A DNA stretch of 64,000 bases from an uncultured Planctomycetaceae bacterium (GCA_964548115.1 CAZJPQ010000008.1:17683-81682); one strand, 5' to 3'. Positions 11,290 through 58,114 are shown, counted from the stretch's first letter. Translations and numbers: made by a program. Notes: a model not told the origin generated them from the letters alone.

Positions 11290-12639
11290 ATGAATATCTC
11301 TGTAGAAGACAAAGGAAGCTGTCTTAAGAAAATCTCTATTGAGATTCCTTCAAATATGATTCAAACGAAGGTCTCGGAAAACTATCGCCAGTTAAACCGC
11401 CAGGTGCAGCTGCCAGGTTTTCGCAAAGGTAAGGCTCCTAAGCAGGTGCTTGAGAAAAAGTATGGCAACTATGTGCTTGAAGATGTTCGCAAGGAGCTTG
11501 TCGATGACGCACTCCAGGAAGCGATTCGTGAGCATGATATTGATCTCATTTCTCAACCCGAATTTGAAGGTGAACTTCCAGAGATCGAAAAAGATAAAAC
11601 GCTGGCTTTCAGCTTAACCGTTGAAGTGCGTCCTGAGTTTGAACTTCCAACGTATAAAGGGCTTGAAATTGAACTTAAGGAACCAAGCGTAAACGAGGAA
11701 GAAGTTGATGCTTTTGTGCGCAATGTTCAGTTCTCACAAGGCCAGCTCCACGAATTAAAAGCGGATGAGAAGAGTCAAAAAGGAGATTTACTTTTTGCTC
11801 GATTTGTGCTTTTCGTTGACGATGAGGAAGTTGCGAGCAGGGATCAGGCCAATCTTGAAATTGGAACTAAGACCATTCTTGGAATCAGTATCCCAGAAGC
11901 TGAAGAAGCATTTCTTGGTTTAGAAGCCCAGGAAAAAAGCGAGAAAAGTTTTGAGGTTACATTGCCAGATGATTTCCCGAAGCAGGCTTATGCTGGAAAG
12001 AAGGCTACCCTTAAGATTCATGTTCAAGAAATTCGCAGGCCAGAGTTGCCTGAACTTGACGAAGCACTTTTAAAGAAACTTGATTTTGAATCCCTTGAAG
12101 ATCTTCGCGAGCATGCCCGGGATGTGATCTTGCAGGAGAAGCACCATCAGCAGGAACAGGATATTGAAAACCAATTGCTGGAGCGTGTGGTTTCTGAAGT
12201 GAAACTTGAAATTCCGGAAAAAATGGCTGAACGTCAGCTTTCAACTGTTTTACAGCGTGAGGCTTTTCGTAAGTATCAAGAAGGGCTTGACGATAAAGCA
12301 ATTGAAGAGTTTATTGAAAAACGTCGCCAAGAGTTGCCTGCTACGATCGAGAGTAAAATTCGTATGGATTTTGTGATTGATGCGATTGCAAAGAAAGAGC
12401 GTATCTTTGTTGTTGAAGATGAGCTTTCTCGCCATATCGCGATGCTGGCTCAAATGCGAAATGTGAGTCCAGAAGAACTCTTTACCCAGCTTGAAAAAAA
12501 TCATATGCTGCCTCAAATACGCTGGGAGCTTAAAGCGAGTAAGACAAAAACGCTCTTGCGTCAAAAGGCAAAGCTTTTAAAGCCTGAAGCAGAGCAGGCA
12601 GCAAAGGAAAGTACAGAATCTGAAAAATCCGATACGTGA
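11290..12639 (+). CDS. tig: Trigger factor
   Basis: Ribosome-binding signature PGFRKGKAP, EVRPEF, FPKQAYAGK FKBP-type region; followed by clpP. Confidence 0.95.
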   Translation: MNISVEDKGSCLKKISIEIPSNMIQTKVSENYRQLNRQVQLPGFRKGKAPKQVLEKKYGNYVLEDVRKELVDDALQEAIREHDIDLISQPEFEGELPEIEKDKTLAFSLTVEVRPEFELPTYKGLEIELKEPSVNEEEVDAFVRNVQFSQGQLHELKADEKSQKGDLLFARFVLFVDDEEVASRDQANLEIGTKTILGISIPEAEEAFLGLEAQEKSEKSFEVTLPDDFPKQAYAGKKATLKIHVQEIRRPELPELDEALLKKLDFESLEDLREHARDVILQEKHHQQEQDIENQLLERVVSEVKLEIPEKMAERQLSTVLQREAFRKYQEGLDDKAIEEFIEKRRQELPATIESKIRMDFVIDAIAKKERIFVVEDELSRHIAMLAQMRNVSPEELFTQLEKNHMLPQIRWELKASKTKTLLRQKAKLLKPEAEQAAKESTESEKSDT

Positions 12640-12697
12640 TCAATCATAAAGAGGTTTTAAGGTCTTATGAACTCAAAAAAAGAAGGTAGAAAACCCT

Positions 12698-13381
12698 ATG
12701 CCTAATGCCGATTATTACCCCGTCCCCTATGTCATTGAAAAAACAAGCCGGGGAGAGCGTAGTTATGACATTTACTCTCGTTTGCTGGAAGATCGTATTG
12801 TCTTTATTCAGGGGACAGTTACAAATCATATGGCCAATGCAGTTATGGCCCAAATGCTCTTTTTGCAAAAAGAGAATAAAAACCAGGACATTCAGGTTTA
12901 TATTAACTCTCCGGGTGGTGATGTTTATGCTGGTTTGGCTATTTATGATACCATGCAGTTTGTTCAGTGCGATGTCTCTACCTACTGTATTGGCATGGCT
13001 GCGAGCATGGGTGCTGTGCTTTTGGCGGCGGGTACTGCCAAGAAGCGTTATGCTTTACCAAACAGCCGGATTATGATTCATCAGCCTTGGGGTGGTGCAG
13101 GTGGTACTGCTATAGATATCAGTATTCAAACCAAGGAAACCCTTTATCTCAAGCAGCGTCTCAGTGAAATCCTGGCTCAGCACAGCAACCGAAATCTTAA
13201 GCAAGTCATTAAGGATAGTGATCGAGATTATTACCTTTCAAGTCATGAAGCAGTTCAATATGGTTTGATTGATGATGTAATCCTGCCACCGGAGCATAAG
13301 CGTGGTGAGTACACGAAGACAGAAGATTCTCGATCATCATCGAAAGCAAAAGCCAAAACTGAAACAAAAAAGAAGAAGTAA
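12698..13381 (+). CDS. clpP: ATP-dependent Clp protease proteolytic subunit
   Basis: [20 protein letters not shown], catalytic Ser (AASMG), His (IMIHQP) and Asp (DRD); Lys-rich C-terminal tail. Confidence 0.98.
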
Positions 13382-16383: not shown

Positions 16384-18849
16384 TTATTTATTTTCATCAA
16401 GAATTGGTATGAGAACTTCTTCGCCTGGAGCGAAAGGTCCAACTTCATATGTTTTTGTCTCTTCCTGGCGACCATTAAAATGATCCTCACCAGTCATCAG
16501 TGTCTTAACCGTAATTGTATATTTCTGATAGGGGAGAATGACCCATTGTTGATCAGAAATTCCTGCTCCTCGAAGCAGGAATTTTTTATAGCCTATTAGA
16601 CCATGATTTTGACTTCCTTCTTCTGGGGTAATCCAAGCCTCAAAAAAGCCGTCCTTTTTTTGATCTAAAGAGAGTTTTACTGCGAGTTCCAGGTTTGGAG
16701 AAAGAGTCTTTCTTTCACCTCCGAAAAGTAGAATCGTTTCAACTTTTGATAAGCTATCCTTTGAAAGAACCTGGAATCGATACTCTCCTGGAAAGACGGG
16801 TATAGAAATTTTTCCATTTTTTATGGTAGCCATACTGGGGGAGGTTTTGATTCTTCTTGTAATCGCATTGTACTCGCTGATATCAGGTTCATCACTCCTT
16901 TGGATATAGATCTGTCCGCCACCATCTATGTCAAGAGAGAGTATCGACACATCTTCTGGTTTGAAGTGAATCAGGATGGGCTTGTCTTTCTGCTTTAACC
17001 AATCCGTAAGATTAAAGTTTCGATGAGAGCCTGTGAAATCACGGATACTAAGCGTTACCTCAAAGACCCTCTCAAGAATAGTAGCCTCGCTAAGGTCGAT
17101 CGTTTCTCTGAATCTTCCATTTTCATCACTATAGTTTCCATAATCATAATCGTAGCTATATCCCTCTCCTTCACTGATGCGAACTCCCAGGGTATAAGGA
17201 ACGTTGCTCCAGGGAGTATCGCCGATTTGGATAGAACCCTGAATATTAAGGCTTTGTCCTGTCAGTTGAAGATCTCCAAGATCATAAAATTCTGAACCAT
17301 CGAGTGTCACAAAGAAGCTTCCAGAAGCAGAGAAAGGCTGATTTTCTTTTTTCCATAGAGCATCGATTTTAACTTTCAATGCTTTTTCTCGGCGAACATA
17401 GAACGAGAACTCCCCATTGTTATTGGCATTGCGGTCTCCCAGCGGTGGGGATGAGGATGAATCCGTAATATAGTTGTGAATTCTAAAACTTGCTCCTGCA
17501 CACGGTTTCCCGTTTTCATTTATAAAACGACCTGTGATCCAGGGGTTCTGTTTTGTAGCCATTACTTCTATAGTGCAATCGGTGTTTTCATTTGCACGTG
17601 TTTGAACTACAACTTGCTGACTTGTGTATACGACTTTCTCGGTGTCAGAAGTTTTGTCCACAGCTTTTACAACAAAGTCTTTATTTGGAGGAACGTTCTT
17701 AAAAATAGCGTTTCCATTATGGTCAGTATAGAGACGTTCAATGAGTTCTAACTCTTGAGTTTGGCTTGCTTTCAATTCACGCAAAAGTTCAACCCTGACA
17801 TTCGGTAAAGGAGTTTCAGTTTCAACAAGAACGTGAACTGTAATCGTAGAAAGAGCAGGTGCTGTTATGCTTTCAGAAGGAGTAGGTTCAGAAGGTTTTT
17901 CTTGGAGAGAGGATGGTTTTGTAACCGAGGAGGGTTCTTCAGAAGGTATTTGGTTAGGAACAGTTGTATTCTCCTTCTTTTGATCTTTCACCTGTTTTTG
18001 TGGTTGAGGAGAATCAATACCTTTCTTTGCCGCAATCTGTTCAGTGTTTTCTTTCTCTTTATGTATTCCAGAGAAGTCATAATTGAAAACTATGACAATA
18101 CATAGTAATGCCAGGATTATTGTTGCAGCCAAAGCTATTTTTTTTGCCATAATAAATCCTCCTAAGGCTAATATTGAAGTGGCGCCAATGGCACTATTTA
18201 CTTGAGTCATGATGTTTTGTGTAAGATTATTCGGTATATTGACAAGAGGCTGAACTCCTTCAGTGCTCAGCAGATCTTTGATTTGAAACCCTTGTGCCAG
18301 GCCAGGCAGTCCAAGTGTTGCAAACTTTTGTGCTAGTTGTTCTAGACCTTCTTTTTGTTTGCGGCGAACAGTGCTTGCAGGAATAGAGAGGGTTTGAGAA
18401 ATCTCTGAGGAGGTCAAACCATGGGCAAAACGCAAGTTAATGACATCACGTATATCACTCGGTAAACTTTTTACGAGTTCCCAGGCTTCGCAAGCCTGGG
18501 CATGAAGCGAGGGATTATTCGAATGCTCAAAAGTTTGAAAAGATTGTGCAGCGTATTGTTCTCTCATATGTCTATTTTTTCTTGATTTCAAGGCGTCATA
18601 AGCGCGGCGTGTCGCAACATGAAAAGAGAAGGTTTGTAGAGAATCTATTTTTTTACCATGACGAAAAGCTTTGTGCAGATTGAGGAAGGTTTCCTGAACG
18701 ACATCCTGAGCCATGTCTTTTTCATGAACGATGCTATAAGCGTAGCTGTAAAGAGAAGTGGCAAGAACATCAACAAGTTTCCTGAAGGCTTGCTGATCCC
18801 CTTTAAGAAGGTTTGGGAGAAGGTTTTCGAGATTGTTATTCCTTGCCAC
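16384..18849 (-). CDS. ECF sigma-70 factor fused to a transmembrane helix and a large extracytoplasmic region
   Basis: Region 2 AQDVVQETFL; region 4 LPSDIRDVINLRFAHGLTSSEISQTLSIPASTVRR; TM IALAATIILALLCIVIVF; P/S/E/T linker; carboxypeptidase-regulatory-like beta repeats (ITGRFINENGKPCAGA). Confidence 0.9.
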   Translation of the reverse strand: MARNNNLENLLPNLLKGDQQAFRKLVDVLATSLYSYAYSIVHEKDMAQDVVQETFLNLHKAFRHGKKIDSLQTFSFHVATRRAYDALKSRKNRHMREQYAAQSFQTFEHSNNPSLHAQACEAWELVKSLPSDIRDVINLRFAHGLTSSEISQTLSIPASTVRRKQKEGLEQLAQKFATLGLPGLAQGFQIKDLLSTEGVQPLVNIPNNLTQNIMTQVNSAIGATSILALGGFIMAKKIALAATIILALLCIVIVFNYDFSGIHKEKENTEQIAAKKGIDSPQPQKQVKDQKKENTTVPNQIPSEEPSSVTKPSSLQEKPSEPTPSESITAPALSTITVHVLVETETPLPNVRVELLRELKASQTQELELIERLYTDHNGNAIFKNVPPNKDFVVKAVDKTSDTEKVVYTSQQVVVQTRANENTDCTIEVMATKQNPWITGRFINENGKPCAGASFRIHNYITDSSSSPPLGDRNANNNGEFSFYVRREKALKVKIDALWKKENQPFSASGSFFVTLDGSEFYDLGDLQLTGQSLNIQGSIQIGDTPWSNVPYTLGVRISEGEGYSYDYDYGNYSDENGRFRETIDLSEATILERVFEVTLSIRDFTGSHRNFNLTDWLKQKDKPILIHFKPEDVSILSLDIDGGGQIYIQRSDEPDISEYNAITRRIKTSPSMATIKNGKISIPVFPGEYRFQVLSKDSLSKVETILLFGGERKTLSPNLELAVKLSLDQKKDGFFEAWITPEEGSQNHGLIGYKKFLLRGAGISDQQWVILPYQKYTITVKTLMTGEDHFNGRQEETKTYEVGPFAPGEEVLIPILDENK

Positions 18850-21320: not shown

Positions 21321-24300
21321 CTATTCGTAGTGAAGGGCCTCAACAGCTTCTTTACTAGAAGCAATCATGGCAGGAACAATACCGCAGAAAAATGACCACA
21401 TGATTGTTGGAGCAGCAATGTCAAGCGCTAAGCGTAAGAGCTCCAGGCCTTTAACGCTTGGAATGTATGTAAGGTAATAGACATCTGGTGGAAATAATCG
21501 AACTCCAAAGGTTGTATCAACCCAATCTTCGATTGGGTTCAGGTTTTGGGAAATAAGTATGCCGAGAAAGGCGCCAAGCAGCGTTCCAAAGAGCCCAATG
21601 AAAAGAGCGTTAAACATGAATATACTGCGAATTCCCCAAGGCGAAGCACCAAGGGACTTCAAGATCCCAATATCCTTGACCTTTTCAATTACGGTGAGAT
21701 AGACCACGATTAAAATCACAATTCCAGCAAGTACGATGATAAGAGTAAGCAGTAATGTAAGGATTGTCTTTTCTCGTTCAACGGCCTTAAGCAATTTTGC
21801 CCGCTCAAGCTCCCAAACCGAAACTCGTGAATTATAGGGAGGTGGCAGGCCTTGGGAAAAGAGCGCAGGGTCTAAAGATAAAGTTGTATCTTTCGTCTTT
21901 GAGTCTATACGGAACATTTCCTTTGAAGCTTGGAGCAGGGTTTCTTCAAACTCTTTTTTTAAATCATAAGGTTTGCCATCATATTGCGTATGGTCCTTGA
22001 GCTTGACACCAAAGACGTAGGTGGCAGTACTTGCCCCAAGCAAGCGGGCATAAGAGTGGTAGTCTGTGTACATGGTGTGAAGGTTATCCTCAAAAATGCC
22101 AGAGCGATAAAAAGCATTGATTTGAAATTCTTGTTCTTCGGCTCCAATTCGGGGTTTGCCTTCTTCATCGTGGCTTCTGTGGATGACCATAAGGTTGACC
22201 TTATCCCCAAATCGAAGTCTCATGCGAGAAGCTAAAGCGTCTCCTATCAGAAGCCCGGGGAGTGGAGCACGAATAGACCAGTATTCGTTTTTAATGGCAT
22301 GGTTATAAAGAGGGGAGCAAAAGTCTTCAAAAGCATCACTTTCGTTTTTGAATTGAGTATCGAGAAAGTGATCTATTTTTGTTTGAAGTTGATCAAGCAC
22401 ATCAAAGAGTTGTGCTTGAAGCTCTTCGATCGTTTTTGCCTGTGAGAAAGAAGATTGAATACTTTGGTTTATCTCTGTGCGAAGTTCAGGGAGCAAGTGT
22501 TGCTTGTAAGCTTGCAAGAGATTTTGCGTGAATTTTGATTTTTGATCTTTTGGTAATTGTTCAAGACGATTTTTAAGAAAGCTTGTGAGAACGTGACGAA
22601 CAAAGGTTTTTGCCTGAGTGAACTCTGATATGTGGTGGGCAGGAACCTCGTGTTGAGCCTGAAAAGGAAGACGAAAACGTGCTCGTGTCAAGTATTCGTC
22701 CGGAGTTTCGCCCAGCAAAAGGCGAGTGCGTAAGGGTAAGATCGTTTTATAAGCTTGGTAACGCTTTTGAACTTCCTGCCACTCTTGGTCCCAATTTTTG
22801 AGCAGCTGGGAGAGCGAAGGCTTCATGAATGCAAAATGCGGTAAAATAAAGTCATCGCTTTCTTGAAGACGCAAGAGTGGATTAAGAAGATTAAGATCCC
22901 ATTCGTAATCAAGATCATCAAGCGTTTTTCGGTGCTTTTCAAGGTAGGGAAGGAGTATGGTCTTTTGGATAGATTCCAGCTTTTTGCGAAGAGTATTATT
23001 GAGGGCTCTTGTTGAGTCCTGCTCTTTAAAAGTCCCTTGAAAAAAGCTTTCAAGTTTGGCCGCAATTTTTTTTGTTACTGTGAGATAGTGCTCAGGAGCT
23101 TTTATTTCAAGATTTTCAAGTATCGTAAGGTTGTCTTCGATGATCCTGAAGTAGGAATCTCTAAAGCGGTACAGGATATAGCGTTGCGCCTCAAGAGTTC
23201 CATCAATGAAGTAGTCCTTAAGATAAACAAGGGCTGCAGCATCGCCAGGATAGTGCTTGTCTTCTGGTGTTCCTCGCTTTCGAAGTTCTTTTTCAGAGCT
23301 GCCAGAAGCTTCAACCCAATCCTGGATGAACTCTAAAAGTTCAGCTTGAGTCTCTTGAAAAAGGGGCTTGAGGTCTTCGCCATGAGAGGTTTTGGTAAGG
23401 GCCTTTATTTTTGACTCTAAAAGCTTAAGCAATTTTTTGCCTGGAGAACCAGGGCGAAAACGAATGCGATTCATTTCAGACCAGACAATTTCACTGTTTC
23501 TTTCGACGTAGTAACGTTGTTCTAAGAGTCGAAGATGGGGACGCCAATAAACACGGAAATTGTGCTCTCTTTGGGTTTGGTTTGTACCTTCTGTTTGCTT
23601 GATCGGTAGAACGGCACTGAGCTCCCTGTTTTCCGGAGCACTTTGAGGATCTTCGAAAACCAGTAGAAAATTTAAAATTGCAATCAGGGGTTTAACGTGT
23701 TGGTCTATAATAAAGCGCTGGAGTTCAGAACGAGCTGCGTACTCTCCAATAGAACTTATTTTTAACTCATTTTGGGGGTCAACAGCTAAAATTGAAGTGG
23801 ATGCTTCAAATTGGTTTGATGATTCAAGGCCGTTGATAGGAGCGAAGTTTTGAATTCGTGGCGAAGCTGCGGCAAAGTTGGGATGCTTGCGAACGGCTCT
23901 CCTTAAAAATGTATTATTTGCCTGAAGTCGAGGCAGAAAGAGCGTGTCAGTCACCTCAGAACGAATTCTTTCACGATAGTTTTGCCTTTCTTCCGGATTG
24001 GAAATGAAAGAAAGCCAGATGTTTTCAGGAGTTGCTAAGGGCAATGAGCTTTCTGTTGGAAAAATATCTGAGAGTAAGTGACGTTCCTGCCAGCCTTCCG
24101 GGCTATCGAGTTGAGCAAGTAAGTCTTCGATTTCGGGTTCTGGGTCAGGCCTTTGTGGAATTTCAGAATCTGGGAAACGTCCTCCAGGCATGGAAGAAGT
24201 CTTTTCAGGTCGTTCTCCATCTCTTAATTTATTTTGCACAAGAGAAAGAGCGTGCTGCCAGGAGCTTAAGCTTTTATCACTGTCTTGAATCCGCTTATAA

Positions 24301-25016
24301 TAGTAACGCCAAACTTCTTGTTCCAGGTTCTCAGAGCTTGCATACAGGCTTTCAGGCTGAGAATAAATAAGAACATGACTTAAAGAACCTCGAATCTGTT
24401 CGCGGTAGTCCTTAACAAAACCGTTCATGATTGAGTTTACGACGATTAAAACCCCGATGCCGGCAGCAACTCCAATGATGCTGGCTAAAGCCATGGGGCG
24501 CTTGCGCAGGTAGCGAAAAGAAATAAAAGCACTTGCTGCGTTCGAGAAAGAATGGAAAAGCACCCGACCAAGATACCAGTCAACAAAGAGAAAAAACTGA
24601 AGGGCAATTGCAGCAAAGCTGTACTGAATCCCTTCAGTCCCCCAAAGTATAAAAGTTATTTGAATAGGCAGAAAAAGGTTTAAAATTCCAAGAGCTAAAA
24701 CACTTTGTAAAAATGGCCACAGACGTTTGAGGCTCGTTCCCTTCCCCATAACGATACGTAAGAGCCCAAGGAGAAGGGCATGAATAGGCCAGGTTATGAC
24801 TGAAAGTATCTGTTTAAGCCTTGGTCCAAAAAAACGAAAAACAAGGTATTCGATGATGAGTAAGCATAGTGTTGCAAGATAAAGGATGCCCCCTTCAGGA
24901 CGGTTTGAAAAATTTCCAAGATCTCCAAGCTCGTAGAGTGTCAGGCCTTGCCAGAAAATGAGCCCAAGAGCTAAGAGCACAAAGAGTGCGAGAATACAAA
25001 AACGAAAGATTTGCAT
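21321..25016 (-). CDS. LolC/E-family lipoprotein-releasing ABC permease, greatly enlarged (1231 aa)
   Basis: RYLRKRP..IIGVAAGIGVLIVVNSIMNGF (TM1), LLIGDALASRMRLRFGDKV, EKVKDIGILKSLGAS, FPPDVYYLTYIP, EAVEALHYE. Confidence 0.88.
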   Translation of the reverse strand: MQIFRFCILALFVLLALGLIFWQGLTLYELGDLGNFSNRPEGGILYLATLCLLIIEYLVFRFFGPRLKQILSVITWPIHALLLGLLRIVMGKGTSLKRLWPFLQSVLALGILNLFLPIQITFILWGTEGIQYSFAAIALQFFLFVDWYLGRVLFHSFSNAASAFISFRYLRKRPMALASIIGVAAGIGVLIVVNSIMNGFVKDYREQIRGSLSHVLIYSQPESLYASSENLEQEVWRYYYKRIQDSDKSLSSWQHALSLVQNKLRDGERPEKTSSMPGGRFPDSEIPQRPDPEPEIEDLLAQLDSPEGWQERHLLSDIFPTESSLPLATPENIWLSFISNPEERQNYRERIRSEVTDTLFLPRLQANNTFLRRAVRKHPNFAAASPRIQNFAPINGLESSNQFEASTSILAVDPQNELKISSIGEYAARSELQRFIIDQHVKPLIAILNFLLVFEDPQSAPENRELSAVLPIKQTEGTNQTQREHNFRVYWRPHLRLLEQRYYVERNSEIVWSEMNRIRFRPGSPGKKLLKLLESKIKALTKTSHGEDLKPLFQETQAELLEFIQDWVEASGSSEKELRKRGTPEDKHYPGDAAALVYLKDYFIDGTLEAQRYILYRFRDSYFRIIEDNLTILENLEIKAPEHYLTVTKKIAAKLESFFQGTFKEQDSTRALNNTLRKKLESIQKTILLPYLEKHRKTLDDLDYEWDLNLLNPLLRLQESDDFILPHFAFMKPSLSQLLKNWDQEWQEVQKRYQAYKTILPLRTRLLLGETPDEYLTRARFRLPFQAQHEVPAHHISEFTQAKTFVRHVLTSFLKNRLEQLPKDQKSKFTQNLLQAYKQHLLPELRTEINQSIQSSFSQAKTIEELQAQLFDVLDQLQTKIDHFLDTQFKNESDAFEDFCSPLYNHAIKNEYWSIRAPLPGLLIGDALASRMRLRFGDKVNLMVIHRSHDEEGKPRIGAEEQEFQINAFYRSGIFEDNLHTMYTDYHSYARLLGASTATYVFGVKLKDHTQYDGKPYDLKKEFEETLLQASKEMFRIDSKTKDTTLSLDPALFSQGLPPPYNSRVSVWELERAKLLKAVEREKTILTLLLTLIIVLAGIVILIVVYLTVIEKVKDIGILKSLGASPWGIRSIFMFNALFIGLFGTLLGAFLGILISQNLNPIEDWVDTTFGVRLFPPDVYYLTYIPSVKGLELLRLALDIAAPTIMWSFFCGIVPAMIASSKEAVEALHYE

Positions 25017-52198: not shown

Positions 52199-52471
52199 AA
52201 GGTCAGCCTTAGGAGTGGACCTTTTTAGCCCTTGATTGTGAAAAGTTATAAAAATAATCGATAAGTCTATAGAATTGTATTCTTTTGTTCAAAGGTTAAA
52301 GGGGTAAGAAAAAACCTATAAAGTTTTTGGGTTTTTCTATCAGCATATATTGAGAGTCTAGGGGTGATAATTTTTGGCTAGTAATTGAGCTTTTGCTCTT
52401 TTCTTGGTACAATGACTCTCTTTAGGTTAAAGAATGTTGAACGTATGTATAGAGTGCTATAAAGGTGTTTC

Positions 52472-54190
52472 ATGTCTGCTAAAGATCTTCCAGCAATTGT
52501 TCAATCAGATTTAAATATTTTACTTGAAGTAGATAGCCCCCTTTATACCGATGCTCGTGATGCTTTGGCTGCTTTTGCTGAACTCGTAAAGTCACCAGAG
52601 CATATTCATACCTATTGCATCAGTCCTCTTTCTCTTTGGAATGCAGCAGCAGCAGGGCTTTCTGTTGATGAGGTTTGTTTAGCCCTTGAGCGCTATAGCC
52701 GCTATGAGATTCCAGAAAATGTTCTGAGTGAAATCCAGGAGCTGATGGCTCGGTATGGAAAGCTTCAGCTGATTAAGGATGAGAAAAGTGGAGAGCTCAG
52801 TCTTCAAAGTGATGATCCAATGCTTTTTCTTGAATTGCTTCACCATAAAGAGATAGCCCCCCTTCTTGGAGTCCAAAAAGGAGATCGTTCTTGTGAAATA
52901 GATAAAAGCCAGCGGGGGGTACTCAAGCAGGCTTTAATTCAATTTGGCTATCCAGCGCAAGACTTGGCCGGTTATACAAAAGGTGAACCTTTAGAGGTTC
53001 GCATCAACAGCCATACGACGAGCACGAAAGAGAGCTTTCAGTTGAGGGATTATCAGCAGGCAGCAGCGGATGTTTTTTATGCTTCTGGTGGAGTTTATGG
53101 TGGTTCTGGAACTATTGTTTTACCTTGTGGAGCAGGCAAGACATTGGTTGGAATTGCCTGCATGGCAAATGTTCAAGCCAATACTTTAATTTTAGTGCCA
53201 AATATTGTTGCAGCACGTCAGTGGCGCCGGGAACTTCTTGAGCGTACGAACTTAAGTCCTGAACAAATCGGCGAATATTCTGGTGAAACGAAAGAAATTA
53301 AGCCAGTTACTATTGCGACATACCAGGTTTTGATTCATCGAAAATCAAAGAACCAGGCTTATCAGCATTTCCACCTTTTGGATAACCCACGCTGGGGGTT
53401 TATTGTTTATGATGAGGTTCACTTACTCCCAGCTCCCGTTTTTCGGGTGACAGCAGAGCTTCAAGCTCGTCGTCGCCTGGGTTTAACTGCGACTCTTGTT
53501 CGAGAGGATGGGCTTGAAAGTGATGTTTTTGCTTTAATTGGACCTAAAAAATACGAAGTCCCATGGAAGATTTTAGAAAAAGCAGGTTGGATCGCCCCAG
53601 CCCAATGCACCGAAATTCGTACACCTTTGCCTGATAACCTTCGCATGAAGTATGCTGTGGCAAATGATCGAGAAAAATTTCGAATTGCAAGTGAGAATCC
53701 TGATAAGGAAAAGCTGATTGAAGCTTTACTGGCATTTCATAAAGACGACCAAGTGCTTATTATCGGACAATATCTCGAACAGCTTGATAGTCTCGCAAAG
53801 CGTTTCGATATTCCTTTGATTGTTGGGAAGACTTCTACAAAGGTTCGTGAAAAATTATACCAGAAGTTCAGGCAAGGAGAAATCTCTAAGCTTATTTTAA
53901 GTCGTGTTGGAAACTTTGCTGTTGATTTACCGAGTGCAGCTGTCCTGATCCAGGTTAGTGGGGTATTTGGCTCTCGACAAGAAGAAGCTCAGCGACTTGG
54001 ACGTATTGTTCGGCCTCAGGAAGATAAAGAACTCGCAGCATTTTATTCATTAGTTTCGCGAGACACAAAAGAGCAAAACTTTGCTTCAAACCGCCAGCTT
54101 TTTCTTGTTGAACAGGGGTATCGCTATAACATCATGTCCTCCTCTGATGTCTTTGATGGAAGTTTTGAGAAGTTCCATATCGATCCTTAA
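52472..54190 (+). CDS. xpb: XPB/Rad25/Ssl2-family DNA helicase
   Basis: N-terminal domain KSPEHIHTY.ISPLSLWNA, Q motif LRDYQ, Walker A LPCGAGKT, DEVH, RED motif (TLVREDG), QRLGRIVRP. Confidence 0.95.
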   Translation: MSAKDLPAIVQSDLNILLEVDSPLYTDARDALAAFAELVKSPEHIHTYCISPLSLWNAAAAGLSVDEVCLALERYSRYEIPENVLSEIQELMARYGKLQLIKDEKSGELSLQSDDPMLFLELLHHKEIAPLLGVQKGDRSCEIDKSQRGVLKQALIQFGYPAQDLAGYTKGEPLEVRINSHTTSTKESFQLRDYQQAAADVFYASGGVYGGSGTIVLPCGAGKTLVGIACMANVQANTLILVPNIVAARQWRRELLERTNLSPEQIGEYSGETKEIKPVTIATYQVLIHRKSKNQAYQHFHLLDNPRWGFIVYDEVHLLPAPVFRVTAELQARRRLGLTATLVREDGLESDVFALIGPKKYEVPWKILEKAGWIAPAQCTEIRTPLPDNLRMKYAVANDREKFRIASENPDKEKLIEALLAFHKDDQVLIIGQYLEQLDSLAKRFDIPLIVGKTSTKVREKLYQKFRQGEISKLILSRVGNFAVDLPSAAVLIQVSGVFGSRQEEAQRLGRIVRPQEDKELAAFYSLVSRDTKEQNFASNRQLFLVEQGYRYNIMSSSDVFDGSFEKFHIDP

Positions 54191-54267
54191 GGGACTTGAT
54201 AAACGAAAAGGAGTTTTATGATGATTGAAGAAAGTGTTAAGAGGAAAGTTGTGAAGGGTAAGTAATT

Positions 54268-54480
54268 ATGAAACTTCATAAACATTTAGGTGTTATTCAA
54301 GCTCTTGATGAGACTGTTTTAAAAGAAGTGCTTTCTATGAGTGCGTTGCAACACAAGGTGCTTGGCTATTTAGCCCCAAATATTGCGGTCTTGGAGCGAG
54401 AGGATGCTGTAGAAGCAACGCGAGTTTTGAAGGAAAGTAACATTCACCCGAGAGTCATTGGTCTTCGTAATAGAAGCTGA
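54268..54480 (+). CDS. 70-aa protein with a p8/Tfb5-like beta-alpha-beta-beta-alpha pattern
   Basis: ATG start, protein-like composition, lies between xpb and its associated gene. The fold call is an inference from hydrophobic pattern. Confidence 0.7.
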   Translation: MKLHKHLGVIQALDETVLKEVLSMSALQHKVLGYLAPNIAVLEREDAVEATRVLKESNIHPRVIGLRNRS

Positions 54481-54605
54481 CTTTGTCCTCTTGTTCAAAA
54501 CGACCAAGCTGTTTTGAAAGGAGATGAAATCTCAAAACATAAGAGTAGATATTTCTCAAGCCAGTTTAACTTGCTTAAAGATAACGTAAGGGAGAAGAGT
54601 TCATA

Positions 54606-56714
54606 GTGAAGCCCTCTTCCCAAATTCAAAAGATAAAGAAAAAAAAAGGACAAGATATTCTTCCTCAAGGATTTACCTTGAGAGAACTTGATCTGCTCTT
54701 TATTCGTATACTTCTTCTTGTTCGTAAACATCCATTAAAGTTGCTTAAAAATGGGAATCTTCCCCGCTCTGCCTTAAAGAAATTCGAATCTTTATTTGGA
54801 GAATTTTCTTTCTTAGAGCAAATCACCCATGACCTTTTCAGTCGTTTTGTTATAGAAACATTGTTATCTTTAGGACTTCTCCAAAAACCAAAAGGACAAC
54901 TTGAGCTTTGCTATCCAGCTTGCCAAGATTTTTTTAACCTTGCTCCAGAGCCACGTTTAAAGTGTTTGCGTAAAAATTGGCTTGAAGCTGGGTTTGACTT
55001 CGAGCGTTTTTATTTGCGTACGTACTATTTGAAACAGGTTCCAGAGGCTGAAAAAAGAAGAAGTTCTCAAATCTTTGATATAGTAATGGAGCTATGGAAT
55101 CCTGGGGTGAATGAAATTGTTGGAGCTCGGAAGCAAGTTCTCAGTGCATTAGAAGAATTAGCTCAAGATGAGGTCCTTTCTTTTGAAGAATTAAAACGCA
55201 AACTTTTGAAGCAGAATCCTGATTTTTTTCTTCCTCCAAGAAAGGTTTTTTATGCTCTTCGCAAGAAAGTAGAAAATCTTAGGGGAGTAAAAAACAAGGA
55301 AATACCCGACAACGATAGACTTTGTTCTTCTCTTCAAGATAGTTTGCTTTACTCCTATCTCCGCTTGCCACTTTTCTTTTATGCTTTTGTAGAACATGTT
55401 TCTGATGCTGAAAAAGAGATTTTTATCAGGCCTCGTCAGGAAAAAGAACCAGAACCTATAGATGCTTCTAGGCCATCATTTATTGTGCAGGCAAACCATG
55501 ATGTTACCGTTTTTGTTCCAGAAACAACCACAGGAGTTTTATGGCAGCTGGCAACTTTAAGCTCTTTGCAAAGTGCGAATCAAAACATATTCACATTTCG
55601 GATTGAAGAAATACGAGCTACTGAAGTTTTTAATAGAGGGTTTTCTTCGCAAAATGTTTTTGACTTCCTTATCGCTCATTCGAAAAATGACTTACCTCAG
55701 AACCTGGAGTATTCGATTCAAGAGTGGGCTCAAAATGCTGAGCGCATTATTATTTATACAGACGCAGTGCTTCTTGAGATGGAAGGTGTGGAGAGGCTTG
55801 AATCGCTTTTGGCTGAACCAAGTCAAGCTTCTATTCAACCGCTTGGAACAGAAAAGTGGTTCGTTGCTTCTTCGGATATTCCACTTGATAGATTACCTCC
55901 ACGTACCTGTATTTTTAATTATGCACAGAAGCTGCCTCCTTGTCTGATCCCTCAGGCTGATGGATCACTTATTTATAGTTATGAGGAGCAAAACTTTCGT
56001 GCCGATGCAGCGCTTCGAAGGTTTGCGGTTAAGCAATCTCTTGAAAATTGGGAGATGAGTAAGGCGAGTATACAAACGGCCATAGCGCAAGGGGGCTCGC
56101 TTCAGAATATTTTTAAAGAACTTGAGGGCTTGTGCAAAAACCCTTTGCCAGCTTTACTTTATGTGCGTTTGCTGATCTGGGGTGAAAGATTTGGCAAGGT
56201 TTCTCTCAGCTGTGAACACCTCATAAGCTTTGAAAGGGTTTCTGATGCAGAGCTTTTTCAAGAAATACCAGAACTGAAAAGTTTTTTTTCAAAGCCCTTT
56301 AACCTTAGAACATTTTTACTTGATGAGCAGAACAAGAGTGAACTCCATGAGTTTCTTAAAGCCTTAGGGCTTTCTTTTCAAGAAAACCTTTTTCAAGAGG
56401 AGTCGCGGGAATCTCTGGAAATTGTCCAACGAAAACGTGCACCTGATTTACCTTCTGCGAATTTTTCTTCTGAATATTTTTCAGCTTTATGGCAACAAGG
56501 GAAGAGTGCAGCTTTTGAGTATGCCGTAGAGCATAAAGGGAGCCTTCATCTGCTTGTTCAAGGAGCGGGGGAGCAACGTTTTCAGCGAGTACGATTAGAG
56601 GCAGAAAGTTTGCTTCAGTTTCCAGACAAGTCATATCTTGAAGGAAAGTCTCTTGATAGGGGAGGGCTGGTTTTGTTTGCCCTTGAATCAATTATGGAGG
56701 CAGATCCTTTATGA
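54606..56714 (+). CDS. XPB-associated protein: two Helicase_C_3 (p52/Tfb2 clutch-like) repeats plus a degenerate C-terminal WYL-like domain
   Basis: FIVQANHDV...FNRGFS..VFDFL..LPQNLEYSIQEW and LIPQADG...SKASIQTAIAQG...LPALL...IW; C-terminal YLEG..LDRGGLVLFALESI. Confidence 0.8.
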   Translation: MKPSSQIQKIKKKKGQDILPQGFTLRELDLLFIRILLLVRKHPLKLLKNGNLPRSALKKFESLFGEFSFLEQITHDLFSRFVIETLLSLGLLQKPKGQLELCYPACQDFFNLAPEPRLKCLRKNWLEAGFDFERFYLRTYYLKQVPEAEKRRSSQIFDIVMELWNPGVNEIVGARKQVLSALEELAQDEVLSFEELKRKLLKQNPDFFLPPRKVFYALRKKVENLRGVKNKEIPDNDRLCSSLQDSLLYSYLRLPLFFYAFVEHVSDAEKEIFIRPRQEKEPEPIDASRPSFIVQANHDVTVFVPETTTGVLWQLATLSSLQSANQNIFTFRIEEIRATEVFNRGFSSQNVFDFLIAHSKNDLPQNLEYSIQEWAQNAERIIIYTDAVLLEMEGVERLESLLAEPSQASIQPLGTEKWFVASSDIPLDRLPPRTCIFNYAQKLPPCLIPQADGSLIYSYEEQNFRADAALRRFAVKQSLENWEMSKASIQTAIAQGGSLQNIFKELEGLCKNPLPALLYVRLLIWGERFGKVSLSCEHLISFERVSDAELFQEIPELKSFFSKPFNLRTFLLDEQNKSELHEFLKALGLSFQENLFQEESRESLEIVQRKRAPDLPSANFSSEYFSALWQQGKSAAFEYAVEHKGSLHLLVQGAGEQRFQRVRLEAESLLQFPDKSYLEGKSLDRGGLVLFALESIMEADPL

Positions 56715-58114
56715 AAAATATTCTAGTTGTTGTTTTATTCTACACTATGAGCGGTCTTTATATTGCAGCATGCTCTTTACATCCTTTCTCGAAAGAGTTT
56801 AAGAATGATGATAGAGGAGAATATTTACAAGAAAGTTTAGAACAGAACCCTCACGACTTTGAGTATTATCGAAAGCTTAAAGATTTTCTGCTGTGGCAAA
56901 ACAGAGGAGAAGAAGCCCGTACAATTATGGAGTATGGGCTTGAAATGAATCCGACAAGTTACGAAGTTTTACTTATGAAAGCAGAAGTCGAGCGTTTCTT
57001 GCTTCATTTTGAAGCTGCTGAGGAAGCGCTTTTGGAAGCTCGAAAGCAAGCCCCTCAAAATACAGAAGTTTTAGATGCTTTGCTTGTCTTTAGACAGGAA
57101 ACTCTTGAGAGCCAAGAGGAGTATGAGTTGCTCCAGTATTTATTTAAGCTTGCCCAAGAGGACAAAGAAAAAGAACGCTACGGGTTATGGTTGTTGCAGT
57201 ATTACTGGAAGGCGAAGCATGATCAAGAGTTGCAAGCATTGATTTCAAACCTTAAGTCATCATCGTTTCCTGGTTGGCTTTATCGTCTGAAATTAAAGCT
57301 TCGAGAAGGCAAACTCGATGACATAGAAATTCTTAAGGAAGAGCCTGAAGTCGATAGTGAATTATACTACCAGTTTCTTTTGCGGCTTGTGCCTTTGAGC
57401 GGTGAGCCTGTTGTTTTGAATTTTTTGCAAGAGAAGTTCAAAAGTGGCCTTGAGAACTTTGATCAAGAAGAAGTGCGTTTGTTTTGTTTGTGGGGCTTGT
57501 GGGAAATTGCCTGGGTAGAAGAAGCATGGCGAGAGCATTGGGGAGTTCCTCCTGAGCACTATACATACTTGAATAGAATAGAAAAAATTCTTGGGAATGG
57601 AAATCAACGGTGGTTTGTTCGTGTTGCTATGGTTGCCGATCTTATTTTTGATCAAGAGCGAGCTTCTCAGTATCAGGAATATTTTGAAGCGACTGATTTT
57701 TCTTTTCCAAAACCTGATACTATAAAAGACTTAATGACTCTTTGGCGCTTTGAAAGCTTTTTGGAGTTAGACCTTCCTCATCAAGCTCTAGAAATACTTG
57801 AGGGTTCTCCGGAGTTGCTTGAAAGTCCAGATTTTTTACTGGTTCGAAAGCAAGTCCTTTTTCAAGCGGGGCTTTTTCAAGAATTAATCAAAGATATTGA
57901 GCAAGATCTTGAAAACAATCAAGCATCTGATTTAAGGGCAGATATTTTACTTTTGCGTTGGAATGCCCTTTGTGCTCTTGGAGAATTTGATAAGGTTCTG
58001 GGTGAAATTGAGCAAGAGCAGGAATTGGAGGAAGGGTTTCAAAAGCATCATAAAGAAGAGCAGATTTTTCTTCAACAGTTGGCTCGTTATCGACAAAAAA
58101 AGTGGGGCAGATAA
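56711..58114 (+). CDS. TPR-repeat protein with a signal peptide / possible lipobox
   Basis: IAAC; TPR-like helices (GLEMNPTSYEVLL; ARKQAPQNTEVL; ALCALGEFDKVL); 4-nt ATGA overlap with the upstream gene. Confidence 0.7.
   Translation: MKNILVVVLFYTMSGLYIAACSLHPFSKEFKNDDRGEYLQESLEQNPHDFEYYRKLKDFLLWQNRGEEARTIMEYGLEMNPTSYEVLLMKAEVERFLLHFEAAEEALLEARKQAPQNTEVLDALLVFRQETLESQEEYELLQYLFKLAQEDKEKERYGLWLLQYYWKAKHDQELQALISNLKSSSFPGWLYRLKLKLREGKLDDIEILKEEPEVDSELYYQFLLRLVPLSGEPVVLNFLQEKFKSGLENFDQEEVRLFCLWGLWEIAWVEEAWREHWGVPPEHYTYLNRIEKILGNGNQRWFVRVAMVADLIFDQERASQYQEYFEATDFSFPKPDTIKDLMTLWRFESFLELDLPHQALEILEGSPELLESPDFLLVRKQVLFQAGLFQELIKDIEQDLENNQASDLRADILLLRWNALCALGEFDKVLGEIEQEQELEEGFQKHHKEEQIFLQQLARYRQKKWGR

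Follow-up and report, generated by a model that had tools for sequence, protein, structure and literature searches.

A three-gene XPB module proposed to resemble the XPB-p52-p8 core of TFIIH in an uncultured Planctomycetaceae bacterium

The window (the whole stretch of 64,000 nucleotides analyzed, from an uncultured Planctomycetaceae bacterium, GCA_964548115.1 CAZJPQ010000008.1:17683-81682) harbored three genes coding for an XPB-type helicase, a 70-aa protein and a 702-aa protein, hereafter the partner. The earlier note on this DNA had claimed three co-oriented genes, and the open reading frames (ORFs) were recovered where it had placed them, all on the + strand. The module lay in a chromosomal housekeeping neighborhood with genes including MutS, GlyRS, trigger factor, BamA and GlmM. 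Around xpb itself were the small gene, the gene of the Helicase_C_3 partner, that of a TPR lipoprotein and one coding for a 3-hydroxyacyl-CoA dehydrogenase-like protein. The features of the locus were as follows.

52385..52413, + strand: candidate operon promoter upstream of xpb from a consensus scan (TTGAGC-17-TACAAT, TG extension), weak because such sites were no commoner in the region than in shuffles
52472-54190, + strand: XPB gene, 572 aa
52496..52870, + strand: XPB N-terminal domain, residues 9-133 (Pfam Helicase_C_3, 120 bits)
53501..53509, + strand: XPB RED motif, R344-E345-D346, read directly from the translation
54268-54480, + strand: small ORF, 70 aa
54606-56714, + strand: p52-like partner gene, 702 aa, GTG start
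54606..55472, + strand: partner N-terminal region, residues 1-289, mostly helical and conserved among two-repeat partners
55473..55895, + strand: partner repeat 1, clutch-like part (290-385) and short β-α-β-β tail (386-430)
55944..56396, + strand: partner repeat 2, clutch-like part (447-534) and C-terminal β-α-β-β-α module (535-597)
56397..56711, + strand: partner C-terminal extension, residues 598-702, lineage-specific
56711..58114, + strand: 467-aa TPR lipoprotein gene (Pfam TPR_19; signal peptide, lipobox IAAC)

The TPR lipoprotein gene, which was not part of the module in the earlier note, overlapped the partner stop codon by 4 nt. Its product shared 24% identity over the full length (E 6e-14) with that of the fourth gene of loci L001-L005 (lipobox LLAGC); the gene was also found in L013 and was kept in the Planctomycetota-type loci whose contig extends far enough. 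It was absent from the Deinococcus loci, and its functional membership in the module is doubtful.

The helicase is a full-length XPB/ERCC3/Rad25-type SF2 DNA translocase-helicase. It matched the NCBIfam model repair_heli_XPB (NF045503) at equivalog level (846.9 bits for a cut-off of 610, residues 7-555), displayed the Pfam domains Helicase_C_3 and ERCC3_RAD25_C, and had the human and yeast XPB structures as PDB matches (E-values of 1e-90 to 8e-86). Motifs read from the translation were GAGKT (Walker A) at residue 220, DEVH at 314, RED at 344 and QRLGR (motif VI) at 507, and the claim of an XPB helicase with an intact RED motif was borne out for a full-length bacterial XPB.

The partner carried Helicase_C_3 in two stretches, and its relatives are named 'helicase-associated domain-containing protein' by NCBI. 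Repeat 1 comprised a Pfam Helicase_C_3 match at residues 293-409 and aligned with positions 2-125 of a human p52 fragment (about p52 306-429), and repeat 2 was matched by the NCBIfam XPB N-terminus at 447-595. The partner clutch is homologous to the XPB N-terminal domain, as is the p52 clutch (Helicase_C_3, PDB profile, hhalign). Positions 42-154 of the human p52 fragment paired by hhalign with partner residues 484-587 (E 1.2e-3), in an alignment that includes the p52 C-terminal domain; the module at 535-597 is the putative counterpart of this domain and, of all parts of the partner, the one most closely related to the small protein. L001-L005, L007 and L013, whose partners measure 565-583 aa, had no such C-terminal extension, and that of the window partner showed no similarity to the extensions of Deinococcus or Paenibacillus partners. 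The peptides quoted from the 702-aa protein in the earlier note were located at partner residues 290-303, 342-355 and 363-390, and the human p52 C-terminal sequence given there for comparison was correct, a fuller version of it being identical to the PDB.

Three independent computational lines (PDB profile, hhalign and Foldseek) supported the 702-aa protein as p52-like. In a PDB search (177,635 sequences), the top two matches of the partner-family profile were human p52 (E 8.7e-4) and, after it, C. thermophilum Tfb2 (E 2.6e-3), XPB appearing only at 0.087. The partner family aligned by hhalign with the eukaryotic p52 C-terminus over 117 columns (probability 93.5%, E 2.3e-7), with a score of 56 versus 15 for reversed controls. 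In a Foldseek search of the partner AF2 model against 350,542 chains, each of the top 19 matches was a chain from an entry that contains TFIIH; three of these chains were confirmed as p52/Tfb2, and XPB chains ranked next. The E-values of this fold search were weak (best 0.019) because the AF2 model was poor (pLDDT 40, and below 50 in the N-terminal region), and the long alignments with chains of p52, which reached 432 columns, were of low probability. In p52, N-terminal winged-helix domains provide the anchor to p34 and p62. Human p52 305-462 itself matched Pfam Helicase_C_3 (E 3.9e-6). The window partner had no match to Pfam Tfb2 (PF03849) or Tfb2_C (PF18307) at E<=1, and one relative (P0003) matched Tfb2 at E 0.15 (11.4 bits, below the cut-off of 34.5). 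In the PDB search, the single-repeat partner family had stronger matches to the XPB N-terminal domain than to p52, so that clutch likeness alone cannot split p52-like from XPB-N-terminal-domain-like proteins. The p52 C-terminal domain by itself gave a marginal match to the bacterial modules (3/100 and 7/100 shuffles reaching the score).

The 70-aa protein had no match to any Pfam or NCBIfam family, and just a handful of homologs (65-69 aa) were found among 1.84 billion representative proteins. Its AF2 model (pLDDT 80.7) displayed the order β-α-β-β-α (E7-11, H15-24, E33-36, E39-43, H44-56). When compared by hhalign, the small family aligned with 17 partner C-terminal modules over 57 columns (P 2.8e-10), with the single-repeat partners at E 5.3e-5 and with its own partner family at E 5.5e-4 (match at 536-600); none of 200 shuffles reached either score against the partner families. 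Judged by these profiles, the small protein is clearly homologous to the module that closes the partner proteins and is a stand-alone paralog of it.

p8 measures about 70 aa, forms one domain with a split α/β fold (β-α-β-β-α), and in TFIIH contacts XPB RecA2. Equivalence of the small protein with p8 is only indirectly supported, via the partner module, which is weakly similar to p8: eukaryotic p8 aligned almost end to end with the modules closing the bacterial partners (P 2.7e-4 to 7.7e-4), with 0/60 to 0/100 shuffles reaching the score and reversed controls scoring 11-14 versus 22-30. Compared directly with p8 by hhalign, the small family gave P 0.38, a score reached by 77 of 200 shuffles, and it was not directly similar in sequence to the p52 C-terminal domain either. 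Its profile had no match in the PDB, neither Pfam Tfb5 (PF06331) nor Tfb2_C matched it, and ten members had no Pfam match at E<=10. When the small model was searched with Foldseek, p8/Tfb5 chains (6trs_D, 5oqj_5, 3dom_B/D; TM 0.42-0.58, rmsd 2.7-4.0 Å, E 0.4-0.6) matched without significance and were mixed with generic ferredoxin-like folds, the best matches including HMA domains and UreE. Being most like bacterial partner modules, the small protein may be a separate duplication rather than a p8 ortholog. Of the TFIIH-core-like triad put forward in the earlier note, XPB and the p52-like partner were supported, while the p8 part lacked any direct sequence match to p8, Tfb5 or Tfb2_C and kept the indirect link. 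The families named there fared likewise: Helicase_C_3 was found in XPB and the partner, the Pfam thresholds of Tfb2, Tfb2_C and Tfb5 were reached by none of the proteins, and Foldseek linked the partner, with weak E-values, and not significantly the small protein, to TFIIH.

An alternative is that the partner regulates XPB and the 70-aa protein is an unrelated ferredoxin-, ACT- or HMA-like regulatory or metal-binding neighbor in the operon, its likeness to p8 being generic. The generic folds, HMA domains and UreE among the best Foldseek matches and the lack of direct profile similarity to p8 are consistent with it, as are three histidines (His4, His6 and His60) invariant across the nine Planctomycetota-type small proteins, but these residues are not kept in the Deinococcus members. 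The homology to the partner C-terminal module (P 2.8e-10, 0/200 shuffles) also argues against an unrelated protein, as does the position of the small gene, always between xpb and the partner gene and mostly joined to them through start/stop overlaps, and we consider this alternative unlikely.

The order xpb-small gene-partner was kept in 11/11 other loci and on three Deinococcus megaplasmids, and the proposed conservation of the small gene beside xpb in relatives was thereby confirmed. The window and the 11 other loci encoded nine distinct small proteins, and the loci with a named source were Planctomycetota MAGs. ATGA start/stop overlaps occurred in most loci, at all three gene junctions in L001-L005 and at the xpb-small gene junction also in L011-L013. 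The earlier note knew of no description of a separate p8-sized gene; such a gene is already annotated between xpb and the partner in Deinococcus, although only as 'hypothetical protein', and nothing comparable to this module was found in the searched literature. Many bacterial XPB loci were without the small gene, which is therefore not generally required, and a metagenomic variant locus encoded XPB with two large partner paralogs and no small gene.

Some copies had a mobile context, which could suggest that the module is a mobile, helicase-based system for defense or conflict and not a housekeeping factor of repair or transcription. Plasmids or megaplasmids carried the copies of Deinococcus, cyanobacteria and others, the Acaryochloris marina copy adjoined transposases and an integrase, the Gloeocapsopsis copy had an IS701 transposase and genes of toxin type (BrnT, RES) nearby, and the XPB helicase core weakly matched PADLOC PbeA models (81.6 bits) and other helicase models. 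The window copy, however, was located among the chromosomal housekeeping genes listed above with no nuclease or other effector gene adjoining; XPB matched at equivalog level, the partner and the TPR protein matched no PADLOC model, and the small protein gave only a marginal MTase_II match. A defense role appears improbable, even more so than an unrelated small protein. That the small ORF is spurious, or was left behind without function when the partner gene was partly duplicated, as its paralogy to a partner segment, missing family annotation and few relatives might suggest, is highly improbable given a dN/dS of 0.07-0.21, start and stop codons overlapping its neighbors, a confident AF2 fold, and a length and position conserved across loci of 42-67% GC in two phyla; it is a real gene under purifying selection.

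To our knowledge, the XPB-p52-p8 core of TFIIH has been thought to be without bacterial counterparts, and we know of no expectation that p34, p44 or p62 would have any in bacteria. Like TFIIH XPB-p52(Tfb2)-p8(Tfb5) (PDB 6NMI, 6TRS), the window module combined an XPB with the N-terminal domain, RecA1/RecA2 layout and RED motif, a partner having a clutch homologous to this N-terminal domain and, after it, a predicted small β-α-β-β-α module, and a distinct protein, about 70 aa long, that is paralogous to that module, p52 being the best PDB match of the partner family. Unlike p52, the window partner had two clutch-plus-module repeats, an unrelated N-terminal region and scores below the Pfam Tfb2/Tfb2_C thresholds; unlike p8, the small protein showed no directly detectable sequence similarity to p8. 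The bacterial module also lacked p34, p44, p62, XPD and CAK, and all its genes were in one operon.

Pairs of XPB and a 'helicase-associated domain-containing protein' in Actinomycetota, Paenibacillus and cyanobacteria belonged to the same XPB equivalog and Helicase_C_3 partner family, but had a single detected partner repeat, no small gene, and a partner located downstream, upstream or divergently. The window and Deinococcus loci differed from them by the two-repeat partner and the extra small subunit. As in archaeal XPB-Bax1, XPB would work with a dedicated protein encoded alongside; Bax1 is a nuclease binding XPB (PMC7672443), and no nuclease family match and no Bax1 (DUF790) gene were found among the neighbors of the window locus. 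In most archaeal XPBs, a shorter damage-recognition domain replaces the N-terminal domain common to bacterial and eukaryotic XPB (PMC3353954).

We propose, with a probability of about 0.6, that the locus follows the plan of TFIIH XPB-p52-p8 and codes for a bacterial XPB translocase accompanied by two subunits dedicated to its regulation. This reading builds on the observed identities, homologies, domain architecture, gene order, overlaps and purifying selection; by analogy with TFIIH, we infer a physical complex, the modules that pair in it, a stimulation of XPB and a cellular process. The partner provides two clutches, each followed by a small module (in repeat 1, the short β-α-β-β tail), and the 70-aa protein is a free-standing copy of the module. 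The p52 clutch has the fold of the XPB N-terminal domain and pairs with that domain in TFIIH (PMC6422496), and a partner clutch may likewise pair with the XPB N-terminal domain via β-sheets. The p52 C-terminal domain and p8 have a common fold, dimerize and together stimulate XPB (PMC6422496, PMC7708078); in the same way, the partner C-terminal module could pair with the small protein, and RecA2 of XPB would be cradled by both proteins, which would adjust its DNA-dependent ATPase/translocase so that DNA opens locally. A biological role in DNA repair or another chromosomal DNA transaction is probable, and the module would mirror, in a bacterial chromosome, the XPB-p52-p8 core of human TFIIH, a factor of repair and transcription.

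The window carries a candidate bacterial counterpart of the XPB-p52-p8 module of TFIIH within a set of four consecutive genes:

52472-54190, + strand, XPB ORF, 572 aa
54268-54480, + strand, small ORF, 70 aa
54606-56714, + strand, partner ORF, 702 aa, with a GTG start and a GGGAGA-type ribosome-binding site ahead
56711-58114, + strand, fourth ORF, TPR lipoprotein, 467 aa, with a 4-nt overlap with the partner ORF

The first three had been described in an earlier note as co-oriented ORFs, and all were found where it placed them, as were the peptides it quoted. The four-gene set was bounded upstream by one or more opposite-strand genes and downstream by an intergenic gap. The window (GC about 42%) also carried genes for MutS, GlyRS, trigger factor, NuoN, BamA, LolCE and GlmM, which identify it as chromosomal and from a diderm bacterium. 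Elsewhere, on the - strand, an ECF-type sigma-70 domain occupied the N-terminus (residues about 1-180) of an 821-aa protein (16384-18849), whose remaining stretch of about 640 residues matched no NCBIfam model at E<=1e-10. In a 1231-aa protein (21321-25016, - strand), only the last ~170 residues matched a LolC/E lipoprotein-release permease, and the very long N-terminal region had no match at E<=1e-10.

The helicase scored 847 bits against the NCBIfam model repair_heli_XPB (cut-off 610) and was matched by human and yeast XPB in the PDB (E 1e-90 to 8e-86). Pfam placed Helicase_C_3, which corresponds to the XPB N-terminal domain, at residues 9-133, along with ERCC3_RAD25_C. Walker A, DEVH, RED and motif VI were all found, in agreement with the intact RED motif reported previously. 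The interval from xpb to the small gene contained a 15-codon mini-ORF (MMIEESVKRKVVKGK, 54218-54265) with a strong AAGGAG ribosome-binding site; it shares the frame of xpb, from which three stop codons part it, and stops 2 nt short of the ATG of the small gene. Unlike in the window, xpb itself overlaps the start of the small gene in relatives; the mini-ORF may act as a coupling device or represent a remnant.

The small gene was strictly associated with xpb and the partner gene in Planctomycetota-type loci. Searched exhaustively with HMMER, 1.84 billion representative proteins contained four homologues of the 70-aa protein (65-69 aa, 39-52% identity); word-index searches with the 70-aa and 702-aa proteins gave almost no matches, whereas exhaustive HMMER and locus scans succeeded. 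Loci gathered from genome and metagenome collections, and from the contigs encoding these four homologues, provided 11 further loci with the small gene, or nine distinct small-protein sequences when the window was included; those with a named source were Planctomycetota MAGs. XPB was encoded directly upstream of the small gene in every one of them (59-73% identical to that of the window), and a homologue of the 702-aa protein directly downstream in 11 of 11 (24-27% identical). The four genes of loci L001-L005 (62-67% GC) overlapped by ATGA at each of their three junctions, which suggests translational coupling, and the xpb-small gene junction of L011-L013 was likewise an ATGA overlap. Two small-protein motifs, MK-x-H-x-H-x-GV and H-P-[KR]-V (H4, H6 and H60-P61; window 54277-54285 and 54445-54450), were invariant in nine of nine Planctomycetota-type sequences but not conserved in Deinococcus; they could form a metal or interaction site peculiar to the lineage.

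Metagenome and plasmid scans for further relatives of the small protein returned few, namely three metagenomic loci and three Deinococcus plasmids. These three megaplasmids, found by searching plasmid records with XPB, carried the same triad: XPB, a 99-115-aa protein annotated as 'hypothetical protein', and an 805-815-aa 'helicase-associated domain-containing protein'. The Deinococcus small proteins matched the small-family HMM over its whole length (two at 25 bits, the third at 14) and possessed an extra basic, proline-rich N-terminal tail of 35-50 residues (L016 6738-7067, L018 6741-7040, L019 6734-7081). A KKRGRPPK motif in this tail resembles an AT-hook (Pfam AT_hook E about 0.1), a hint that the small subunit of this lineage may contact DNA.

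Conservation of the triad, a point the earlier note had put up for checking, held in the 11 loci and the three Deinococcus megaplasmids but not at other XPB loci. The small gene was absent from a Paenibacillus locus, where XPB and partner overlap, from a Tsukamurella locus, and from an Actinomyces locus with a divergently transcribed partner. A 99-aa gene preceding the Actinomyces partner was rejected as a small subunit, as it encodes an unrelated membrane-type protein. Two cyanobacterial plasmid loci also lacked the small gene, with a partner of 622-624 aa annotated as 'hypothetical protein' directly upstream of xpb (L014 3102-4970, L021 3098-4972). The JGI contig of the partner-like protein P0003 (sample 3300042731) encoded XPB (590 aa) and then two large Helicase_C_3 proteins (769 and 772 aa), with no small gene, and two haloarchaeal plasmid XPB loci had neither partner nor small gene adjoining. 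Two contigs (those of P0010 and P0011) encoded single-repeat partner-like proteins of 546 and 549 aa, with the clutch and C-terminal module at the C-terminus in a p52-like layout, next to a diacylglycerol-kinase-like gene and not xpb.

The TPR lipoprotein gene followed the partner gene in L001-L005 (about 11904-13343) and L013 (from 3870) as well, and the window's product was 24% identical to these proteins over its full length. The protein has a signal peptide and a lipobox. Since the Deinococcus loci lack it, a role as a subunit is unlikely, and beside a cytoplasmic DNA enzyme it makes an odd neighbour. XPB identity and the four-gene synteny shared with these loci suggest Planctomycetota or a related group as the source of the window.

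The partner protein resembled p52. Greber et al. 2019 (PMC6422496) describe a p52 clutch (residues 306-399) that shares the fold of the XPB N-terminal domain, its pairing partner, and that precedes a dimerisation module for binding p8. Pfam detected two Helicase_C_3 stretches in the partner, a model that human p52 305-462 itself matched (E 3.9e-6), and P0003 matched Pfam Tfb2 weakly (E 0.15). The human p52 305-462 and human and yeast p8/Tfb5 queries agreed exactly with PDB chains; alignments printed in PDB searches supplied the sequences of fungal p52 and C. thermophilum p8. A profile of the two-repeat partner family (9 sequences), searched against all 177,635 distinct PDB sequences, retrieved human p52 first (E 8.7e-4), then C. 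thermophilum Tfb2 (2.6e-3), and XPB only at 0.087. In hhalign, run like the other profile comparisons on shallow alignments (3-17 sequences), a three-species p52 C-terminal alignment matched the partner family with a probability of 93.5% (E 2.3e-7; p52 fragment 2-125 versus partner 291-409), reversed-profile controls scoring 15 versus 56. A second alignment (42-154 versus 484-587, E 1.2e-3) ran through the p52 C-terminal domain, and for the XPB N-terminal domain the alignment of the same query spanned only 51 columns (E 4.6e-5).

The AF2 model of the partner, built from a 4-sequence alignment, was poor (pLDDT 40), and its Foldseek search against 350,542 PDB chains was used solely for the identity of hits. 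The first 19 were all chains of TFIIH-containing entries (E 0.019-0.39), with 8ebt_D, 6trs_A and 7o4i_2 confirmed as p52/Tfb2 and the others of p52-typical length; mainly XPB chains came after. A profile of single-repeat partners preferred the XPB N-terminal domain (E 2.5e-4) over p52 (E 1.2), which indicates that the clutch domains of XPB, p52 and bacterial partners belong to one superfamily, within which the window's partner family alone leans clearly towards p52. Judged from these profile, hhalign and Foldseek matches, the 702-aa protein is p52-like, as had been suggested, with Pfam Tfb2 and Tfb2_C thresholds not reached. Its C-terminal extension had no relatives among the other partners.

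The small protein appeared as a stand-alone version of a module repeated across the locus. AF2 with a 5-sequence alignment predicted a β(7-11)-α(15-24)-β(33-36)-β(39-43)-α(44-56) fold (pLDDT 80.7). By eye, a module of β-α-β-β-α pattern followed every clutch domain in XPB and partners. Four such modules are thereby at hand once the small protein is counted as well: the XPB tail, those of partner repeats 1 and 2, and the small protein itself. The small-family alignment A5 (10 sequences) matched single-repeat partners at the post-clutch module (small protein 7-62 versus Paenibacillus 449-504, E 5.3e-5) and its own partner family at the last module (536-600, E 5.5e-4). None of 200 column shuffles reached either score, shuffling being a lenient null because it destroys secondary-structure periodicity. 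Against 17 partner C-terminal modules, A5 gave P 2.8e-10 over 57 columns (reversed controls about 14 versus 49); against the XPB tail (residues 110-160) the match was marginal (P 0.03, 3/200 shuffles). By these matches, the small protein is a free-standing paralogue of the module at the partner's C-terminus.

A similar relationship exists in TFIIH, where p8 and the p52 C-terminal domain share one fold, and where the XPB ATPase is stimulated in sequence by p52 and p8 (Kuper et al. 2020, PMC7708078). Eukaryotic p8 (3 sequences) matched the bacterial modules nearly end to end (single-repeat partners, P 7.7e-4; 17 modules, P 2.7e-4; modules plus small proteins, P 4.7e-4, p8 9-59 versus small protein 9-56). 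From 0/60 to 0/100 shuffles reached these scores, and reversed controls gave 11-14 versus 22-30. Cyanobacterial partners carried 'LIEC[ND]', resembling the p8 motif 'LIECDP'; in L014 and L021 the C-terminal module starts with 'ARLIECND' or 'ARLIRCAD'. The small family alone displayed no similarity to p8 (P 0.38), no alignment with the p52 C-terminal domain, neither Tfb5 nor Tfb2_C in Pfam and no PDB hit. Where the family did match the p52 fragment, weakly (P 0.11, 6/200 shuffles), the alignment sat in the clutch region, and the p52 C-terminal domain alone matched the bacterial modules marginally. Foldseek of the small-protein model against the PDB gave nothing significant (best E 0.15); p8/Tfb5 chains ranked 18, 27, 31 and 42 among generic ferredoxin-like folds (TM 0.42-0.58, rmsd 2.7-4.0 Å, 51-56 columns; not significant). 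The p8 likeness put forward earlier was therefore retained through the bacterial modules and not for the small family by itself: the link is transitive, suggestive and not proven. Since the small protein resembles bacterial partner modules most, an independent duplication paralleling p8 is as plausible as orthology.

That the small protein would be a generic ferredoxin-like regulator is argued against by its paralogy to the partner module and by the strict synteny of its gene. A gene remnant would fit poorly with the small gene's dN/dS of 0.07-0.21, conservation across two phyla and a confident AF2 fold. A defence system was rejected, as PADLOC matches were limited to the helicase core and the window neighbourhood is housekeeping.

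The bacterial module follows the same plan as XPB-p52-p8, but its partner has two repeats, its genes form an operon, no other TFIIH subunits are included, and its proteins do not reach the Pfam Tfb2, Tfb2_C and Tfb5 thresholds. Compared with the widespread bacterial pair of XPB and a 'helicase-associated' protein, the window locus has a third, small subunit and a clutch duplication in addition; the nuclease of archaeal XPB-Bax1 has no equivalent there. The parts list and genetic coupling are supported by the data; contacts and activities we infer by analogy with TFIIH. A clutch of the partner would form a pair with the XPB N-terminal domain, as would the small subunit with the partner C-terminal module, and together partner and small subunit would hold XPB RecA2, setting ATPase/translocase activity for DNA opening.

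The literature searched, whose coverage of subscription journals is incomplete, did not describe any p52-like or p8-like protein from bacteria; NCBI already names the partner family, generically ('helicase-associated domain-containing protein'). On a tentative reading, to which we assign a probability of roughly 0.35, the XPB-p52-p8 module would not be a eukaryotic invention: bacteria would have a genuine version with all three subunits, made of XPB, a p52 homologue and a stand-alone p8-type subunit from the superfamily of eukaryotic p8. The eukaryotic module may, on this view, go back to an XPB operon of bacterial type, since most archaeal XPBs are without the p52-pairing N-terminal domain and a few associate with the nuclease Bax1 instead.

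The function of bacterial XPB was still termed elusive in a 2026 review (PMC13024598), and Kuper et al. (PMC7708078) could address p52/p8 control of XPB solely with TFIIH parts from fungi. The conserved XPB/p52-like/p8-like operon is of direct relevance to how the TFIIH core arose. It offers a minimal, co-expressible model for p52/p8 control of the XPB motor, and yields testable partners for bacterial XPB proteins that still lack an explanation, the mycobacterial and Deinococcus ones among them.
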